The translations under genes were made by a program, and so were the position numbers. Shown one piece after another: positions 54,500 to 64,000 of a DNA stretch of 64,000 nucleotides (positions are counted from its first letter, which is position 1; each line of letters starts with the position of its first letter). The notes below the pieces were generated by a model, which was not told the DNA's origin, ran no database searches, and saw nothing but the letters and a program-made list of their open reading frames with translations. The stretch is from an uncultured Gemmatimonadales bacterium (lineage in GTDB: Bacteria > Gemmatimonadota > Gemmatimonadetes > Gemmatimonadales > Gemmatimonadaceae): NCBI GenBank assembly GCA_963707505.1, contig CAVPQB010000002.1, positions 122,032 through 186,031 of the forward strand. Reading direction: 5' to 3'.

Positions 54500-55598
54500 A
54501 TGAGCGCCGTGACGACGCCGAGTGCGCAGAGCGGCGCCGAGTATGATCGGGCGCGGGAGCTGGTGCTGGAGTACGGGTGGAATTCCACTGCGTACCAGAT
54601 ACTGAATCCTGGGTTCGAGCTGTGGTTCTCCAGGGTGCATCCGGCGGTGGTTGGGTATGTACGAGCTGGCGGGCGACGAGTGGTGGGCGGTGCGCCGGTT
54701 GCTGCTGACTCCGATCTGCGCGACGTGGCTGAGGAATTCGAACGCGATTCACGCGCGGCGCATGCTGGTGTGGTTTACTTCGGCGCCGAAGAGCGGCTCG
54801 AGGCATTGTATCGCGGGACTAAAACCCACTCCGCGATATTGCTCGGCGCGCAGCCGTCGTGGGATCCTGAAGACTGGGCTGGTATCATCGCTACGCACTC
54901 GTCGTTGCGCGCGCAGTTGAATCGTGCGCGGAACAAGGGTGTGAGCGTTGCGTTGTGGCCGTCGGATCGGGCGGAACGGAGTCCCGAGCTCAAGACGTTG
55001 CTTCAGGAATGGTTGGGGACGAGAGGATTGCCGCCGCTGCATTTTCTGGTGGAGCCGGAGACGTTAGGGAATCTTCGGGATCGACGAGTTTTTGTTGCGA
55101 CGCGTGGGGAGGTGCCGGTGGGGTTTCTGGTTGCGTCACCGATACCGGCTCGGCGCGGCTGGCTCACCGAACAGTTCGTGAGGGGGCGCGGGGCGCCGAA
55201 TGGGACTGCGGAGCTGATGATCGACAGCGCGGTGCGGTGGGTGGCGGAGCAGACGTGCTGACTACGTGACGCTCGGACTGGCGCCGTTGTCGACTGCGGG
55301 CGTGGGGAACTTAACAGATCAAGATTTGTTGATACGTTTGGGATTCAAGTGGGTGCGGGCGCATGGGAGGCGGTTTTATAACTTCGGGGGGTTGGACAGT
55401 TTCAAGGCGAAGTTTGCGCCGGAGAGGTGGGAGGCGGTGTATGCGGTTGCGAACGAGGGGCGGTTTTCGATACGGTCGTTGTATGCGATCGCGTCGGCGT
55501 TTACGGAGGGGAGGCCGTTTAGTACGGTGGCGAGGGGGTTGGTGCAGGCGGGGAGGCAGGAGGTGAGGTGGATGGGGCGGACAGGATTGAGGCAGTGA
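54500..55598 (+). CDS. DUF2156 (aminoacyl-phosphatidylglycerol synthase C-terminal GNAT-like) protein, frameshift near 55255
   Basis: GGAPV, LRAQLNRARNKGV, APNGTAELMI, TLGLAPL, FYNFGGLDSFKAKFAP. Confidence 0.85.
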
Positions 55599-55624
55599 CC
55601 ATCTTCGCGTTCGCGCACGCCGTC

Positions 55625-55799
55625 ATGTCTTATACTGCGGAGATTGCAGCATAAGATGGCAACGGAGAAACGCGTACGATCGCGTAAGTCTCTCTGGCCC
55701 TAGGAGATGCGTCTTGCGCTCAGGGACTTGGTGCCCATCTTATACTGCGTGCTTGCAGTGTTTTTGAAGCAGAGCGTTGCAGCCTAATATGCGTTAGGC
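55625..55799 (+). other. attI-like recombination site with four GCAGYMTAAKA motifs
   Basis: GCAGCCTAAT-ATGC-GTTAGGC core at 55779-55799; related motifs at 55625 (rc), 55646 and 55735 (rc); GTTAGGC is the complement of the first cassette's GCCTAAC end. Confidence 0.65.
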
Positions 55800-55826
55800 C
55801 TCAACAAACTCCGTTTCCGTGTACGA

Positions 55827-56783
55827 TTGCCGCCAATAACATTTCTCACCCCGTTGTTCGTAAGTGAACGCGATGCGGCTGGGGAGCGCGTGGTCTTCAG
55901 AGCTCCCGGCTGGCTTGGCGAATTCCGACGTCCGCGCGAACGCCGTTATCGGCACGAGGGATTACGGCTTCACATCGAAGCTCCCGACGGGGATAAAGCG
56001 CAAGCCGCCCTGGATGCGATCTGGGCGGCGCTCGGAATACTTGAGTTCGAGGCCGGCGACGATCCGTACATGCTGGTATTCAGTCCGGGCGTTGAATATC
56101 GACCTGGTATCGACGCAAGGTCTGCGGTATCCACCTCCGCTTACTATCCGCGCTCAGTTGTTCGCGCTTGCGCGTTGGCCGCGAAGGCAGCTAGGCGGCG
56201 AGAAACCCAGTACGCCTTGGCCATCCTGCATCGCAGCATGGCGCTTCATTCCAACCACCCGATGGAGCTCGATCCAGATCACGCCCGTCACGTACGGCTT
56301 TCACCAAACCCGAGCGATCACGCGCGTTTCGCTTACGCCATTGTGACTGCCTATGCTGCACTCGAACAAATGGGATTAGAGGTAAGAGCATCACAGAAGA
56401 ATCCATCCTTTATCAAGGGCGCGTGGAACCCGCCGGTCAAGAGCAATCTTGAAACGCGATTGACGGACGCCGGGGTGAATCTCGCAGATTCAGCTGTGTG
56501 GCACCTCCGGGGACCGCGCACTAGCATCGAGAAGGCACGAGGGTTACGGGCAGTTCGCCGAGCCAATTGGGCGTCGGGTGTGGTGCGAGACATTGAAGTC
56601 GACGTCACCGATGCCATCGCTGGGGCAAGCTGGCTACGTAGCAGAGTCTCAGCTCACAAGATTGGTGACCTAGCACGATCACTTTCGATTTATGACGTCG
56701 CGAACGTACAGTATCTAGTACGGCGGCTCTTCTTAGAGAAGCTCCGCATGTACCCGAAAGCACCGTCGCGACCTGAGGCCTAA
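55827..56783 (+). CDS. cassette 1: hypothetical protein with HEPN-like C-terminus
   Basis: Stop codon lies within the attC inverse core; helical C-terminus with WLRSRVSAH. Confidence 0.7.
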   Translation: MPPITFLTPLFVSERDAAGERVVFRAPGWLGEFRRPRERRYRHEGLRLHIEAPDGDKAQAALDAIWAALGILEFEAGDDPYMLVFSPGVEYRPGIDARSAVSTSAYYPRSVVRACALAAKAARRRETQYALAILHRSMALHSNHPMELDPDHARHVRLSPNPSDHARFAYAIVTAYAALEQMGLEVRASQKNPSFIKGAWNPPVKSNLETRLTDAGVNLADSAVWHLRGPRTSIEKARGLRAVRRANWASGVVRDIEVDVTDAIAGASWLRSRVSAHKIGDLARSLSIYDVANVQYLVRRLFLEKLRMYPKAPSRPEA

Positions 56784-56872
56784 CGAACGCTGAAGCTGAC
56801 AAGACGCTATTGAATAGTGGCGCCTGCGCCACTCTTATGAGACTTCTTTGCAGCTTAGCTAGGGCGTTATAC
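56778..56872 (+). mobile_element. attC site 1
   Basis: GCCTAAC-GAACG-CTGAAGCTG ... CAGCTTAG-CTAGGGC-GTTATAC with central hairpin AGTGGCGC/GCGCCACT. Confidence 0.9.
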
Positions 56873-56886
56873 CGCAACACGCATCG

Positions 56887-57170
56887 ATGCTGAACCAAGC
56901 CGACCTCGAGTCGATTCAAAATACTCGGACCACCATCGCGAGCTGCTCGCGCATCCTGACGACGCCGGCTGCTTCTACTGCGGTGCGCTTTTCAAGCCGA
57001 CCGAGATCATGGACTGGATCGATGGTCGGCAGGTCGAAACCGGTAGCACTGCGAATGGTGTAACCGCCCTTTGCCCGCGATGCGGGATTGACGCCGTCCT
57101 GCCTTCCGCCGCACCCTTCCCGCTTGACGAGTGTGTCTCCGCAATGCATCATCACTGGTTCGAGAAATGA
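56887..57170 (+). CDS. cassette 2: small zinc-ribbon protein (frameshift near 56918)
   Basis: Translated by hand: MLNQADLESI/KYSDHHRELL...GCFYCGALFKPTEIMDWID...TALCPRCGIDAVLP...HWFEK. Confidence 0.75.
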
Positions 57171-57194
57171 CGAGTGATTGTTCTCGCGCCGGCG

Positions 57195-57292
57195 GTATAA
57201 CGAACGCTGAACCTGACAAAGGGGCTATTGAAGACGCTCGCGCCGCGAGCGTCCTTATATGATCCCTTTGCAGCTTAGCTAGGGCGTTAGCC
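57195..57292 (+). mobile_element. attC site 2
   Basis: GTATAAC (complement of the cassette start GTTATAC) GAACGCTGAACCTGACAAAGGG ... CCCTTTGCAGCTTAGCTAGGGCGTTAGCC; central GACGCTCGCG/CGCGAGCGTC. Confidence 0.92.
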
Positions 57293-57311
57293 AGCAACAC
57301 ACTTCCCAATC

Positions 57312-57755
57312 GTGACAATCCACGCGATTTCAGCAATCGGCCGCAGCGCTCTCTTGACCGAGATCGTAGTGAAGCTAACCGATGTTCCAGCGCCAGAGTT
57401 CATCACGTTCGATGACCGATTTCCCGCGATGGAGATCGCGGCGTGGCCGAGTGGGGCTGATCCATCCGAGCCGCCGATCTACACGGGCCGTGTTGTCCTC
57501 GTCGATGCCCAACGCGTTGTGTCCCAGACGATGCACGCAAGCGATCCATACCGAGGCCTCGGGATTCCGGAGGCATGCTTGCTCCTAGTCCGGACTATGC
57601 TGGCGCGACCGCTCTACTCAAGCACGAATGCGGAGACCCTGGCGTGGCTTAAGACAGAGTACCAGGCGCCCGAAGCAGAAAAGGTCTGGCGGCGTTTGGA
57701 ACGTTGCGGATGGGCGAAATTCGACGCCGCGACGTATCGTTTTCTTTTACCCTAG
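57312..57755 (+). CDS. cassette 3: hypothetical protein with GNAT-like motif
   Basis: Starts 20 nt after attC2; PYRGLGIPEA resembles the acetyl-CoA binding loop; AEKVWRRL. Confidence 0.55.
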   Translation: MTIHAISAIGRSALLTEIVVKLTDVPAPEFITFDDRFPAMEIAAWPSGADPSEPPIYTGRVVLVDAQRVVSQTMHASDPYRGLGIPEACLLLVRTMLARPLYSSTNAETLAWLKTEYQAPEAEKVWRRLERCGWAKFDAATYRFLLP

Positions 57756-57821
57756 TCGTCAGGCTGCCTCACTAGAACTACATCCTCTCGACCTGCCTGC
57801 TAACGCCAGCAACAGAGTTCC

Positions 57822-58419
57822 ATGAAATGCCACCAATGCGGCACACCGGCCATGTTCCGGCAGGCCCTGACAACAAGATTCCGCTGTGCCTCGACTGCAA
57901 CCTCAAGCTGCAGACGTTGCACACAAGGCAGCTCGCTGAGATGGAGCGCGCGCTTAACCATTCCGTAGAGCAGACGGAGTCCATCGCCGGGTTCCCACTA
58001 GGTGGGAAGTTCCCGCCACGACCACAACCCGCGTTACGCAGGGGGCGCGGCGCTTAACGACATCCGACGTCAGCGACAGCCAAGCGGGCGTTCTGAACAC
58101 CGGATACCACCGGCTTCATCGACGCCGCTATCACCGTCGTTCGGAACGAAGGCGTCGGGAGCTCGCAACGGCGCTTTCGGATTTTACAGAAGAAAGTCGC
58201 CAAGGTCGGGATCTCACCGTCCAGCAAAGGCGCGAGGTCGTCGAATCGTCGTCAGCGCCGCCGCTACGGAAGCCGCGGTCTCCACAGCAACGACGGAAAC
58301 CCGCTGTTGTGCGAGCGCTTATCGTGGACATAGTGCAGCTTGTGTCTGGCACGGCAGCGGTCGCCGAGCTCGGACATCGTACGGCCGCAGTAGTGAAAGC
58401 CTCCGGGCTTCCGCTGCTG
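57822..58419 (+). pseudogene. cassette 4: Zn-finger (CHQC...CLDC) protein, heavily frameshifted
   Basis: MKCHQCGTPAMF, then IPLCLDCNLKLQ... in another frame; the reading frame breaks repeatedly; end approximate. Confidence 0.5.
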
Positions 58420-58443
58420 AAAAGTTATCGCGCAGGCGCCTAG

Positions 58444-58569
58444 GGCCGAACGCAACGCTGAAGTGACGCTTCGTATGTTCGGATTGCGCCGGCTCCGAGC
58501 TGCGCCCCCAGCTAGTGGCGCTCTTACCAAACCCCGTTCCGGGGCGCAGGCTTAGCTAAGGCGTTAGGT
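58444..58569 (+). mobile_element. degenerate attC site 3
   Basis: Left AACGCTGAAGTGAC and right GCTTAGCTAAGGCGTTAGGT resemble attC1/2; the inverse core is corrupted. Confidence 0.65.
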
Positions 58570-58604
58570 GGCTCCCACACGTTTTCCTTAGCCCAAGGTC
58601 GCGA

Positions 58605-58878
58605 ATGCTCACCCCCACCGCTCGTCGCTGGCAACTCCTGGAGCTCGTCCTCGCGGTCGCGGCTACGCTCTTCGCACTCAGTCGCAGCACTTCACGGGTG
58701 CTGGCAGGGCGACCGGTGGCATGGAGAGCTCGTGGGCGCTCCCCCTGCTCATCCTGGGCAACGCCATGCTCCTTGGTCCGGCTGGTGGCACACGCGCCGG
58801 CGGCTCGCCAACGTACTCGGAGTTGTTAGCGTCGTCGCTGCCCTTGCGATCCTCGTCGCAGAAGTGCGCACCCTCTGA
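58605..58878 (+). CDS. cassette 5: small membrane protein (frameshifted)
   Basis: MLTPTARRWQLLELVLAVAATLF; hydrophobic fragments; bounded by GTTAGGTGGC and GCCGCCTAAC. Confidence 0.45.
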
Positions 58879-58959
58879 GCCGCCGCCTAACGAACGTTGA
58901 AGCTGACAAGGGTACTTGCTCCAGTTCTGTAGACACTTTCACCTAACAATGGAGGTGTC

Positions 58960-59328
58960 ATGCCACGCTCAGGGCCACGCACGGTCCACCGCTACACTGA
59001 CGAGTTCAAGCTGACCGCTGTTCGTCTCAGCCAGCAGCCAGGAATTCAGGTACAGAGTGTCGCGGCCGCGCTGGAGATTCACCCGTTCATGTTGTCGAAG
59101 TGGCGAAAGGATGTACGCGACGGCCTGCTGCGAGGGCGAGTTCGGCCCGCCCCCAAACGCGGCCCAGCGCGGGAGCTCAAGCAGCTCCAAGCACTTGAGA
59201 AGGCCCATGCGCAGCTGCAGCTGGAGCACGATCTCCTAAAAAAAGCCATCCGGTTCTGCTCCGCGCGAAAGCAGACCGGTTCGCCTTTATCGCCACACTC
59301 CTCGCGCCCAACTCGCCGTTCAACGTGA
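58960..59328 (+). CDS. IS3 transposase OrfA
   Basis: YTDEFKLTAV HTH, leucine zipper, LLKKA; GGAGG RBS. Confidence 0.92.
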   Translation: MPRSGPRTVHRYTDEFKLTAVRLSQQPGIQVQSVAAALEIHPFMLSKWRKDVRDGLLRGRVRPAPKRGPARELKQLQALEKAHAQLQLEHDLLKKAIRFCSARKQTGSPLSPHSSRPTRRST

Positions 59329-60131
59329 CTCAGCTTTGTCGATACTATGGGGTCACGCGAGGCGGATTCTATGCCTGGCGCAATCGCGCCGTCAGCCTAC
59401 ATGCGGAGCGGGATCGGGAGCTGCGTAGCGAGATTACTCGGTGCTTCGCTCTGCATCGTGGGCGCTATGGAAGTCCACGCATTCATCACGCGATGATCAC
59501 ATCGGGGTGGACGGTGAGCCGACGTCGCGTCGCGCGACTCATGCGAGAGGCAGGTCTGCGCGCGAAAGCTGTGCATGGTTATCGTGCGAAAGTTGGCACT
59601 CACCGATTCTACGGGCAGCATCCGAACCGATTACGGACTGTCCACGCCACAGCACCGGATCAAATCTGGGTTGGAGACATCACCTACATCGCCGTGGCGG
59701 GGACATGGCGCTACCTGGCCATCGTAATGGATCAGTACTCCCGCCGGATCTTGGCCTGGTCACTTAGTCGACGCCGCGACGCCCGCGTGACGCGAGCCGT
59801 CCTCACCGCGGCAGTAACGCGACGACGTCCGCCAGCCGGGTTGATCTTTCATAGCGATCGCGGCTCCGAATATCTCGCCGCACAGTTTGGCGACCGCGTT
59901 ACGGCACTTGGCCTGCTGCAGAGCGCCAGTACGGCCGGTCCGGGAGACAATGCCCACATGGAGTCCTTCTTCCACTCTCTAAAAGCCGAAGTCACCCGCG
60001 GCGTAACCTACGATCAGGATACCGTGCTGCGCCGCGACATCGATAGCTACATGCGGTACTACAACACTACCCGGCAACACTCCGCGCTCGGATACCACTC
60101 ACCGTGTGCCTTTGAACGCTTAGTATTGTAA
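59325..60131 (+). CDS. IS3 transposase OrfB (DDE); joined to OrfA by a -1 frameshift
   Basis: YGSPRI, WVGDITYI, FHSDRGSEY, DNAHMESFFHSLKAE; the -1 frame from the A7G site is open into OrfB. Confidence 0.95.
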   Translation: MTQLCRYYGVTRGGFYAWRNRAVSLHAERDRELRSEITRCFALHRGRYGSPRIHHAMITSGWTVSRRRVARLMREAGLRAKAVHGYRAKVGTHRFYGQHPNRLRTVHATAPDQIWVGDITYIAVAGTWRYLAIVMDQYSRRILAWSLSRRRDARVTRAVLTAAVTRRRPPAGLIFHSDRGSEYLAAQFGDRVTALGLLQSASTAGPGDNAHMESFFHSLKAEVTRGVTYDQDTVLRRDIDSYMRYYNTTRQHSALGYHSPCAFERLVL

Positions 60132-60247
60132 ACGTCGTGTCTACGAAACCGGAGCACGATCCTGGGCTGATCTGTGGAAGCTCGCTGCGCTTGCTATTGT
60201 TTTCACTCGTCCACAGCTTAGTTCTAGGCGTTATGCAGACAACCTGA

Positions 60248-60947
60248 ATGTGGTGCGACGATCTTCCCGTTGAGTCTACGTGGGCCGCGCTGTGGCGTGG
60301 CTACATTCTTTGCGCTCGCTGTCGCGGCATCCGGACCGTCGCAGAATCGTGCCCGGCATGCGAGGCCCCGCCGCCGAGCCTCGCCCCGAGCGTAATCCGC
60401 ACCGGAAGATGGGCAGGAGTTCGAAGTTGCAACGGCATTCATGGGCGCTGAGGGTCGGTATGAAGACTGGGTATTTCTGATTCTTCTAGAGCGGGAGTGG
60501 AAGCGATCGACGACGGATGACGCTCTCCTAACACGCATCTCTGAGCAACATCGACCGTCGGATCGCGCCGCCTTCGTCCTTCTCTTCTGGACGTACTTCG
60601 AGACCCGGTTTGAGAGATTGCTCAGACAGGGAATGGCCGCCATACCTGAGCCCATCGTGGCGGACCTTCTTCAGAGATACAGTTCGATTGGAGCTCGCCT
60701 AGATCGCTTGTATCGGGTTCTGTTTAGCACGACTTATTGGGCCGACCTTGAGGACTTGGGCTACGGTCAAGTCGCGGCGTTGCTTCGCGACGTCCAAGAG
60801 CGGCGCAATCGATTCGTGCATGGTCACCCCGAGGCCATTGACGACGCCATCGTCCAACGACTCGGAGAGGGCCTGAAAAGAGAGCACGAAGCGTGGATCG
60901 CCGCGTTCAATCGCAGGGCAGCTTTGTCGCCGTCCACAGATTCGTAA
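60248..60947 (+). CDS. cassette 6: zinc-ribbon plus HEPN-like protein (frameshift near 60400)
   Basis: CARC...CPAC N-terminus; FWTYFETRFE and ERRNRFVHG (RNxxxH). Confidence 0.7.
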
Positions 60948-62088
60948 CTCTCATGGCAGCGGCTAGCCATAGTCCGATCCAAGAGAGCTCCGCGGCGCAG
61001 AGATCTCGGCGGACCTCCAGCCATCGGTGCGTAATCTAGGCGCCCGCTTGCTCGCCGGCGCGGGTGCCGCCGACGTCCTCCCCCGCAAACACTGGTCGTT
61101 AGCCACATCACGCTCGACATAGCGCCGTCGCCTAACGCGCGGCTCATCCCCGACTCGGGGCGGATCGGGCAGGTCGCGACGCAGTCTCGATGATGAGCAC
61201 GCCGCCCGCAGCATCGCGGCGGCGTTGACGCAACGCTTCCCATTGCCGAACTATTCGGCATCGAGGAGTATCGTTCGGAAGTTATGGACGTACTCAGTTT
61301 GCTGGCACCGGCGATTGCGCACCATCCCACGGCGTTGGGGGCACTCTCGGTAATACTCTCGCACTCCTTCACGCTCCTGCCGCTGTGGCGTTCGCTCCCG
61401 ACGTAGCCGACCAGCGAACACGAGCGCTGCTCGCAGAGCTTGCGCGCGAATAGGCGCCCGCCGCCTCAAAGCGCACATTTTGTACAATCAGGCGATATCG
61501 CTGCGTTCCTCCGCCGCAGATTCAAGCGTGGAAGCCCGTCTTCAAGAGCAGACGAACTGGTCTCCGAGGTGCCGCAACGATGAGCACGGCACCGAGCGAA
61601 AACTAGAGCATCATGGCGTCGCGGCGAGAAGTGTGCGCCGAGATTGGCGTAGCCGTCAATTCACTGCCGCGGATTATTTCGCCACTCGGCGCGTATGCGC
61701 CTCCACTCTTCTCGCAACTCGGCTTCCATCTCTTTGGGCCGACTCTTTATCTACCTCGAAACGACACCACCAAACTGTGCTGTTCCAAAGGACGAAGTGG
61801 GCCCGACAAGCGTGCGTCCGCCAAACTGAGGACATAAGTGCGCAGCACCGCGATCAGTCATGCGAAGTCGCCACGCAGGGCCAGCGCGCAAATCCAGATT
61901 GATTGAGAGACATCGCCACGACCCGACGGGCATTTGAAGACGAGCGCCCTGTCACCATCTGGACGAACCGCAGAGCGGCTGGCTGGCTCCCCACGATCGC
62001 CGCCCGCGCTCTCCTGCCCCGAGACGGTGATGAGCGGCCGGTAACGAAATGGACCGGTTCTCATTTGGACAACCACACAGAAACGCAG

Positions 62089-63602
62089 TTACGCTGCCGG
62101 TGCATAGCGCTCTCGTAGGTCGTCTTCCGCAGCGCGAATTAAGTCGCTAGCAATGACATAGGCCAGCACACGCCGATCTCGACCGCCGTTGTCATCAAAC
62201 GATGCAAAACGTAGCAACGCCGTCGCGACAGCAATCGCATACGCTGCCCTCTCCTCTCGACGATCCTTGGCGCAAGTCCGCACGGCTTTGATTGCCGCTG
62301 CTACGCTTTTCGCAAATCCGGACCGATCAATATTCTCGGCGGCCAACGGATACTGAAAAGCAGCTCGAATCGCGTCATCATCGGGAGCAACAGGCCAGTT
62401 CTCAGGCCAATAAAGTCTGCCGGAAACACGATACTTACCGTCGAGGCTGGCGGCATCCCAAACACGAGGAGCGTTTTGAGCAACCGTGGCGTAGTCGATA
62501 ACCGCCACGTCTTTCGTTCCGACATGAACGAAAAGGTTTCCGGCGTGCAGATCTCCGTGAACTTTGCTCAAGTGACACTCGACGGGCGGTAAGCCCAGCA
62601 GATTAGCGCGTAGTTCAGGCCAGTTTGGCGATCCACGCGCACTCGCCTCGTCCGCGACTCGCGTCAGCTCTTCGGAATCACGAAGATACCGCAAATCCCT
62701 GAAAATCGGGCCGAGCTTTTCGTAGGATGTTTCGGAGATCTGATGAAATCGATCGAATGTATGACTAAAGAGCGACCCAATTACATCGAGCGCGCCTTCT
62801 GTGAGGCATTCAAGGAGAGGCTGCGAACGCGCGAGGAAACGATAGACGACAGCATTTCGGCTATGCCCATCACAGCTTCGCTGCTCAACTATTGGCGCGT
62901 ACAAGCGCGACGGGATCGACTGCATCCTCGATGAGAGCAAAGCCCGATTTCTCCCGAGAGTTATCCGCTGTCTCAATCTTGACTACAAATTCGGTCGATG
63001 TTTGCTTCGCGTCCCTGGCGTTCATCGCGACACGCCAGGTTTCCGCGCTACTCCGGCCGACGCCTAGCTTGCGTAAGTACAGCGTTTCACAATCACGAAA
63101 GGCGCGCTGCAGGAGAGCCCTGCACTCGCCGTCATCGGGTTCGTCGCCTTCAAAACATAATTTCGTGTTAGCTGCCAACTCGAAACCAATCCCACCAACC
63201 AACGCCGCAACGGATTGCCACCGATTTTCCATGAATGGCTGCCACGATCCGACTCGCAAGCCCAATTGATCGATCATCCTTTCAAACTCTGCCAACTCAG
63301 CCTGAGTTGGCGGAGCAGCATCTCTACTTTCTGTGCGAGTCATTAACAGGATTCGCACCCCGTACGCTTCTGCGAGGCGTATCGCGGTCTTGGCGCGTTC
63401 GACGAAGCCAACAGTGTCGGCGACGGGGATGATCAGCGTGCGCGTGTTTGCAGCGTGGCATGCAAATGTTTCGCTATCTACCGCCATCACCGTGCACCGG
63501 CGATTGCTCTGGTCTTGCACCAAGGCACAAAGGGCTGCGTTCGCGTCGGGAGGTTCTGGCCATGCGACGATGTTTCGCTCCGTCGTGTTGGGTGGACGCC
63601 AT
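62089..63602 (-). CDS. TCAD9-like/APH-fold kinase with an N-terminal alpha/beta (receiver-like) domain (frameshifted)
   Basis: LLQRAFRDC, GRSSA, FVVK, E, VHGDLHAGNLFV, IDY, WDAASL; ATG 1 nt after the ThiF gene stop. Confidence 0.7.
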
Positions 63603-63603
63603 G

Positions 63604-64000
63604 CTAGACTCCACCGAGGCGACCTGGGAACGGGAACAGATCGCCCTTGCAACGCGTCCCGTACGGAGAGCACACGGGGCACAATGGAGCGCGCTCCACG
63701 GTTGCGCGGCTAACAACCCCAGAATCGAACCGTAGAAGTTGATAGCGGCTCGCCATGGGGATTCCGGTGAAAGCGGACAGCATCATTGTCACGGCCATAG
63801 AGCTCGCGGTCGCGTTTAACGACACGACTGCCGGCTGAGGAACGACGTCATCAACGATATACCGATCGCGAGCCCGCTCATCCACAGTCATCAAGTCGCG
63901 ACGTACCTGTTCCGAGTCTAGCACCTCGGCGCAGAGGAGGCACGGTTGACTCGGAGTCAGCATTTGTACGCGACCGACGATTCGCGTCAACTCTCGCCTG
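63604..64000 (-). CDS. ThiF/E1-like adenylyltransferase, C-terminal part (starts outside the window)
   Basis: GRVQML.P..PCLLC, PAVVSLNATASSMAV, CPVC; two CxxC zinc pairs. Confidence 0.82.
   Translation of the reverse strand, partial: RRELTRIVGRVQMLTPSQPCLLCAEVLDSEQVRRDLMTVDERARDRYIVDDVVPQPAVVSLNATASSMAVTMMLSAFTGIPMASRYQLLRFDSGVVSRATVERAPLCPVCSPYGTRCKGDLFPFPGRLGGV

Follow-up and report, generated by a model that had tools for sequence, protein, structure and literature searches.

The window analysed here is a 64,000-nucleotide stretch of DNA at the end of contig C2 of an uncultured Gemmatimonadales assembly (G000; 3.66 Mb, 6 contigs, 83% complete). It carries an integron cassette array that starts at a recombination site, attI, of about 175 bp (55625-55799, plus strand), with no integrase gene (intI) beside it. 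We consider it probable that these are the orphan attI and the array of a reverse chromosomal integron. An ancestor likely lost the neighbouring intI by deletion, after which first-position cassettes were likely still gained or lost through an IntI encoded elsewhere. It should be noted that frameshifts in several genes suggest assembly errors.

The attI element and its counterparts behind intI

The element comprises ATGTCTTATACTGC (55625-55638), GCAGCATAAGATGG at 55646, CCATCTTATACTGC at 55735 and GCAGCCTAAT-ATGC-GTTAGGC at 55779-55799. Boxes 1 and 2 form an inverted pair, TCTTATACTGC-N7-GCAGCATAAGA (55625-55659, plus strand). Box 3, CATCTTATACTGC, together with a degenerate inverted GCAG and a TTTTTGAAGCAGA tract (55735-55773, plus strand), is the most conserved part of attI and is kept by most partial copies. 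The simple site (55779-55799, plus strand) consists of the L box GCAGCCTAAT, ATGC and the R box G↓TTAGGC, with the crossover between 55793 and 55794; independent contigs diverge at 55796-55800. The inverted box pair, the third box, the TTTTTGAAGCAGA tract and the L-R simple site are conserved in an alignment of 15 copies (A2), and across the genus the element follows one plan: three TTATRCTGC boxes, then the L box, then G↓TTRRRY. Because the boxes resemble the L box, the L' arm of attC and the DR1/DR2 repeats of attI1, those of the inverted pair are predicted to be accessory IntI-binding sites, and the boxes would be bound by IntI as DR1 and DR2 are (PMC12901181). A YRAC motif was observed 20-32 nt ahead of box 1 in 13 of 24 full-length attI copies. 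No match to the sigma-70 consensus was found in 55400-56100, and a promoter and terminator scan, in which a Pc promoter for the cassettes was looked for, gave 0 sites. No RNA data set containing the element was listed either.

The 11-mer GCAGYATAAGA has 4 copies in the assembly, three within 130 bp at attI and one at C4:4611. About 1.6 copies are expected genome-wide from base composition, and three in one given 130-nt stretch correspond to p~3e-14. The copy at C4:4611 coincides with a second, degenerate attI of G000. A role of the motif as a global operator (e.g., LexA-like) was rejected, since each of these few copies lies in an attI. The element was also considered as a long attC or a twin site with leftward crossover, and this was dropped because no leftward cassette arrays were present in the 3 copies examined. 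The second site belongs to a hotspot of its own: in three close relatives (G000:C4:4590-4900, G015:C6:668392 and G016:C10:11497), the sequence is ~92% identical as far as GCAATATA(A/G)C. Beyond this point the three part, and both the degenerate attI and the genes downstream differ from one genome to the next.

A sequence-only profile (R1), built from alignment A2, was searched over 22 genomes of the genus and 19 genomes of other genera. It gave 58 attI matches in 19 of the 22 genus genomes (1-7 each) and none in the 19 others; without the unpublished genomes G007 and G017, there were 54 matches in 17 of 20. The window copy scores 128.8 bits, being one of the training copies, which match by construction. 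Long flanking context was examined for 51 of the 58 copies.

Using TIGR02249 (cut-off 265 bits; matches in relatives taken at E<=1e-60), IntI was found in 5 of 21 same-genus genomes versus 16 of 19 other genomes, with scores of 410-420 bits in the relatives. In 4 of the 5 intI-bearing genomes of the genus, attI lies just 3' of the intI stop in the same orientation, at a distance of 29-43 nt in G003, G016 and G019 and of ~80 nt in G012; in the fifth (G010), intI stops at the contig end. In G003, G016 and G019, the motif CATCTTATRCTGC is found on the strand of intI, directly downstream of the gene. The intI-then-attI layout also occurs in 2 of 8 metagenome contigs. In other genera, GTTARRY was found within 350 nt downstream of intI on the same strand at 8 of 14 loci (1.3 expected by shuffling), and upstream at 0 of 11. 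The standard layout, with attI upstream of intI, was rejected, as 17 intI loci, inspected for up to 500 nt on their upstream side, lack the motif there. Based on this arrangement, the genus platform is judged to be a reverse integron of the Treponema type, with intI transcribed towards attI. A canonical IntI gene upstream of, and co-oriented with, attI is present in relatives and absent at the window locus.

On sequence grounds, 55625-55799 is a true attI: its homologue sits behind intI in relatives, and strains diverge at its R box. The initial annotation had described an apparent attI here, which is borne out, and every motif and pair of cassette ends that it named lies in its place. The motif also flanks intI in relatives, as the initial annotation had proposed to test, and does so at the 3' end of intI.

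Orphan attI sites and the probable loss of intI

Upstream of the window attI is a PF09924 (LPG_synthase_C) gene (54500-55598, plus strand; Pfam), which is split by a likely one-base assembly frameshift near 55252-55266. The family was formerly named DUF2156, and we use this name below. The DUF2156 frame ends at 55598 and only 26 nt separate it from the first attI motif, so that intI is absent between them, in line with the earlier remark that there was no room for an adjoining integrase gene. Different genes adjoin the DUF2156 3' end (55598 in the window) in the relatives examined, some of them defence-like by eye, and the site represents an insertion hotspot. An attC-like regular expression also matched behind DUF2156 in G016, but these matches fall within coding sequence and were discarded.

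No genome of the genus holds more than one full intI, which 5 of the 22 have, and all 5 relatives with an intact intI also hold orphan attI copies, 2-5 each, away from it. At six loci of published genomes, an intI 3' stump stands directly before attI. The left ends of the stumps are scattered, those of four loci falling at aa ~241-281 of the G016 IntI, and show no common crossover signature. One metagenome locus, represented by three contigs, retains ~29 intI codons before attI. G018 shows a clean deletion of intI: its intI promoter region runs into attI, and both sides are ~90% identical to intact G016. A deleted intI stump is also present in G000 at C6:234058-234264, where a G016-type 5' part, whose promoter region and initial codons share ~86% identity with the intact intI of G016, is fused to an internal piece (aa 122-150); it is without attI, and cassette-like genes follow. 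An attI tree (175 nt, weak support) groups the window copy with that of L155, which carries an intI stump, and not with the G016-type stump on C6; this is a hint only. Further cassette regions of G000 reach contig ends at C6:1-3400 and C4:1-4900 (both on the minus strand), the latter with several collapsed, stem-less attC-like sites.

Two traces concern the DUF2156 locus itself. In G002:C78 (L166), a DUF2156 3' tail of 51 nt, matched at 76% identity (E 8e-5 in 1.0 Mb), lies ~88 nt ahead of an intI 5' pseudogene. In the window, a segment overlapping the DUF2156 frame end (55576-55599, plus strand) possibly holds the last codons and the stop of a deleted intI, as it lines up, on the expected diagonal, with the intI stop of G001; when matches were bound to that position, 9 of 600 shuffled sequences and 6 of 600 genome segments did as well. 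Considering the 3' stumps kept by orphans, the clean deletion in G018 and the DUF2156-tail/intI fusion in G002, the window attI most likely lost its intI in place. Arrival without intI may hold for attI copies inside arrays.

Short 3' tails of the upstream gene were also seen with intI units at new loci, namely the tail of a 125-aa gene in L125 (G016) and L140 (G018) and the DUF2156 tail in L166. Such tails hint that part of the flank travels along when the platform relocates.

Probable cassette exchange and competing explanations

The same intI-less DUF2156-attI junction is present in G020, with an attI 90.8% identical to that of the window. The first cassette of G020 differs from the window's, and a 92-95% identical copy of it lies behind an attC in the array of G012, with the boundary at the R box. 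Among the matches listed from soil metagenomes, at least 4 contigs from 3 of 4 runs (3 studies) join DUF2156 to attI without an insert. At least 3 of them reach the crossover and, when compared with cassette 1 of the window, are unlike it from 55796-55799. A junction-specific pattern gave 0 matches in metagenome contigs. Since the intI-less junction recurs in G020 and in three independent soil studies, the misassembly at 55.6 kb considered by the initial annotation is excluded. The different first cassettes behind one junction suggest cassette exchange after intI loss, likely by IntI acting in trans; the comparison of cassette content behind DUF2156, proposed earlier as a check, thus fits service in trans.

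A number of observations speak against this interpretation. An intact intI was not found in G000, where no TIGR02249 match exceeds the cut-off and tblastn gives the stump alone, in an assembly that is 83% complete and has three contig ends in cassette regions; at the window, no intI adjoins the array as it would in a complete integron. Near-complete G015 (99%, 2 attI) and G005 (94%, 1 attI) have no intact intI either, so that these three genomes would possess no present-day enzyme acting in trans. Many orphan attI copies are degenerate, and the R box of G020 reads GCTGGGC. Purifying selection on the orphan attI pair of G000 and G020 was not significant (6/83 differences at conserved columns versus 12/95, p=0.17). 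Homologous recombination between attI copies or between attC copies could exchange arrays without IntI. The DUF2156 gene of the window is nearer to G016/G015 over most of its length and nearer to G020 from 55500 (the last ~100 bp). Its 3' tip therefore looks recombinant, which suggests that homologous exchange occurs at the locus and that arrays could be swapped without IntI. As for the origin of the orphan, intI directly between DUF2156 and attI is absent in all 18 other genomes with a DUF2156 match. The intI-tail trace at 55576-55599 is weak (p~0.01) and without significance in the corresponding G020 copy. The G002 assembly has 7% contamination.

Some of these points would be expected if the array were a fossil CALIN (attC sites clustered together without an integrase), inert since the deletion of intI, with strain differences arising from RecA-type swaps among attI and attC repeats or from deletions. 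The lack of intI in G000, G015 and G005, the result of the selection test and the recombinant-looking DUF2156 tip agree with it, as does the damage to attC3, attC4 and attC5 in the window. However, every divergence point lies at the R box (55796-55800), and the first cassette of G020 is a precise module common to another array. The ends of cassette 1 are perfectly complementary, as are those of several other orphan first cassettes. We regard this fossil reading as unlikely.

The initial annotation had favoured a true split integron. In this case attI would have arrived without intI and never stood beside an integrase, having come either as an attI-type cassette or on a circle that IntI cut out between attI and a secondary site upstream of it. 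Several attI copies do lie within co-oriented arrays (G020 C2, G003 C14, G019 C385, G005 C24). At G020:C2:411091, attI follows a cassette's TTCTAAC in the place of attC, and a delta-attI-type unit is plausible there; attI-bounded cassettes recombine in class 1 integrons (PMC12901181). In addition, full intI has differing upstream neighbours in G003, G010, G012, G016 and L154, so the platform moves. The window attI, however, has no GTT-type left boundary, and a core gene rather than a cassette start lies upstream of its attI. The stumps lack a common left end and a crossover signature, and a former presence of intI at the locus is suggested by the G002 fusion and by the weak trace of an intI stop. 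We find an arrival without intI quite improbable for the window.

The earlier contrast with a decayed CALIN is not supported, given the intI-deletion intermediates common in the genus, the G002 fusion and the intI-stop trace. The distant integrase that it invoked was not found in the 83%-complete host assembly, only the deleted stump at C6:234058-234264. The initial annotation had itself named four observations that would count against it (no motif beside intI in relatives, intI at this position in relatives, no IntI in the host, misassembly), and two were partly made: intI probably once stood at this position, and no IntI was found in the host. That the cassettes landed at a chance chromosomal attG with unrelated upstream motifs, an established route to integrase-less cassettes (10.1101/2022.09.11.507474), or that the junction was misassembled, is refuted and deserves almost no credence, since the 175-bp element has its homologue behind intI in related genomes, unlike an attG/SALIN target, which is unrelated to attI, and the junction recurs in G020 and three independent studies.

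For the orphan attI of a reverse integron, we suggest the following course. The platform, intI together with attI, would settle at new loci, where intI would then be deleted and the attI core retained. Any IntI in the cell, whether from the one intact gene or from a gene reacquired by transfer, would recombine attC circles into the attI pads. The window array itself may be frozen at present, since no intact intI was found in the G000 assembly.

The cassette array and its place among known systems

All features of the array lie on the plus strand. Cassette 1 (55793-56865; ends GTTAGGC/GCCTAAC) contains a 318-aa open reading frame (ORF; 55827-56783) with 34 homologues without known function and, on 14% of one cluster, a MauJ-like lead. 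Its attC1 (56778-56872) forms a bottom-strand fold with the R and L boxes paired (z -3.1). Cassette 2 (56866-57285; ends GTTATAC/GTATAAC) contains a small CxxC (zinc-ribbon-like) ORF at ~56887-57170, frameshifted by the assembly, and attC2 (57195-57292), also with a bottom-strand fold (z -4.4). In cassette 3 (57286-57804), a 147-aa ORF (57312-57755) is followed by an attC collapsed to TGCTAAC (57798). Cassette 4 (57805-58562) has an ORF in pieces (57827-58057 and 58002-58466) and a damaged attC4 (~58444-58569) with no attC fold (z +0.4). Cassette 5 (58563-60229; ends GTTAGGT/GCCTAAC with 1 mismatch) includes a small membrane ORF from 58605 and R'' GCCTAAC at 58885; its attC5 (58885-60236) is split by an IS3-family insertion sequence (58911-60162, ends approximate) with OrfA (58960-59328) and OrfB (59325-60131), for which PF01527 and PF00665 were found and NF033516 scored over its cut-off. 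Cassette 6 (60230-61097) contains ORFs 60248-60451 and 60441-60947, probably one frameshifted gene, followed by a degenerate site; HEPN RiboL-PSP-like function is a lead only (score 0.90; family on 27% of members).

Cassette-like sequence extends beyond 60947, and a 39-nt unit at 61098-61136, GTTAGCC...GCCTAAC, resembles an empty cassette. The attC sites of complete integrons, with RYYYAAC/GTTRRRY ends and a bottom-strand stem, are represented by attC1 and attC2, the other three being damaged. With a minimum of two attC sites and no nearby intI, the array falls under the definition of a CALIN. The features that the initial annotation named in the array were correct; the IS3 element in attC5, the collapsed site after cassette 3 and the continuation past 60947 had been overlooked. 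Apart from the IS3 transposase and one match below the cut-off, no Pfam, PADLOC or NCBIfam family was found among the cassette proteins (12 proteins with PADLOC, 13 with NCBIfam).

The IS3-type element has just two close copies in the assembly, at 58911-60162 and C6:1501-2757 (66% identical), both within attC near the position of the L'' arm. No copy was found in the regions of relatives that were searched, and our literature search found no paper on IS3 targeting of attC. Downstream of the array, the minus strand of 62089-64000 encodes an APH/TCAD9-like gene, a 265-aa ORF without assignment and a cysteine-motif C-terminus with a weak TOMM/cyclodehydratase-type match; these genes possibly form a conflict system.

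Among described systems, the reverse integrons of Treponema (PMC3607928; 10.1101/2020.05.09.085589; PMC4889954) are alike in having intI directed towards attI, co-oriented cassettes, and an L/R simple site with accessory repeats behind the intI stop. They carry one attI per integron beside intI, whereas the Gemmatimonadota genus has 1-7 attI per genome, mostly without intI and at many loci. An attI downstream of intI is also known in Archaea (10.1101/2022.02.06.479319). Class 1 attI1 and delta-attI-type cassettes (PMC12901181; PMC3146285) share L and R boxes together with upstream IntI-type boxes, and there attI can replace attC in an array. However, attI1 has 65 bp and two direct repeats, while the window attI has ~175 bp, an inverted box pair with a third box and a 7-mer L box 4 nt from R; the cases from class 1 concern short pieces of attI carried by mobile integrons (PMC12901181; PMC3146285). 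Insertion at attG/SALIN sites (10.1101/2022.09.11.507474) likewise involves IntI acting away from its own locus, and the target in the window is a true attI homologue instead of a genomic secondary site.

CALINs (PMC4889954; for Xanthomonas, 10.1101/2025.06.18.660453) resemble the window array in their attC sites (at least two) without a nearby intI, and both intI loss and mobilisation in trans have already been proposed for them (PMC4889954, PMC8618304). They are more numerous than complete integrons; where they come from and how active they are is in question because attI is usually unrecognisable (PMC4889954). They are defined by attC alone, as attI was not searchable (PMC4889954), while in the window array attI is identified and retained. 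In Xanthomonas, a common intI lesion usually goes with identical arrays (10.1101/2025.06.18.660453); at the window junction, a common lesion goes with different first cassettes. A literature search that covered few subscription journals and no supplements revealed neither a published Gemmatimonadota attI nor published orphan attI sites in multiple copies.

In this genus, integrase-less arrays can be told by their attI, and how they come about is seen from intermediates of deletion. The common junctions with different first cassettes suggest that integrase-less arrays keep working. A defined set of attI, attC and IntI from Gemmatimonadota provides a basis for direct trials of activity in trans and of the accessory boxes. 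We tentatively put forward a wider model, a distributed integron, in which one patchily inherited IntI would serve as many as seven attI pads scattered over a genome. These pads would multiply because the reverse layout lets attI relocate, with or without an intI stump, and would stay active after intI loss. If this model is true, many CALINs would be live capture sites with an unrecognised attI.

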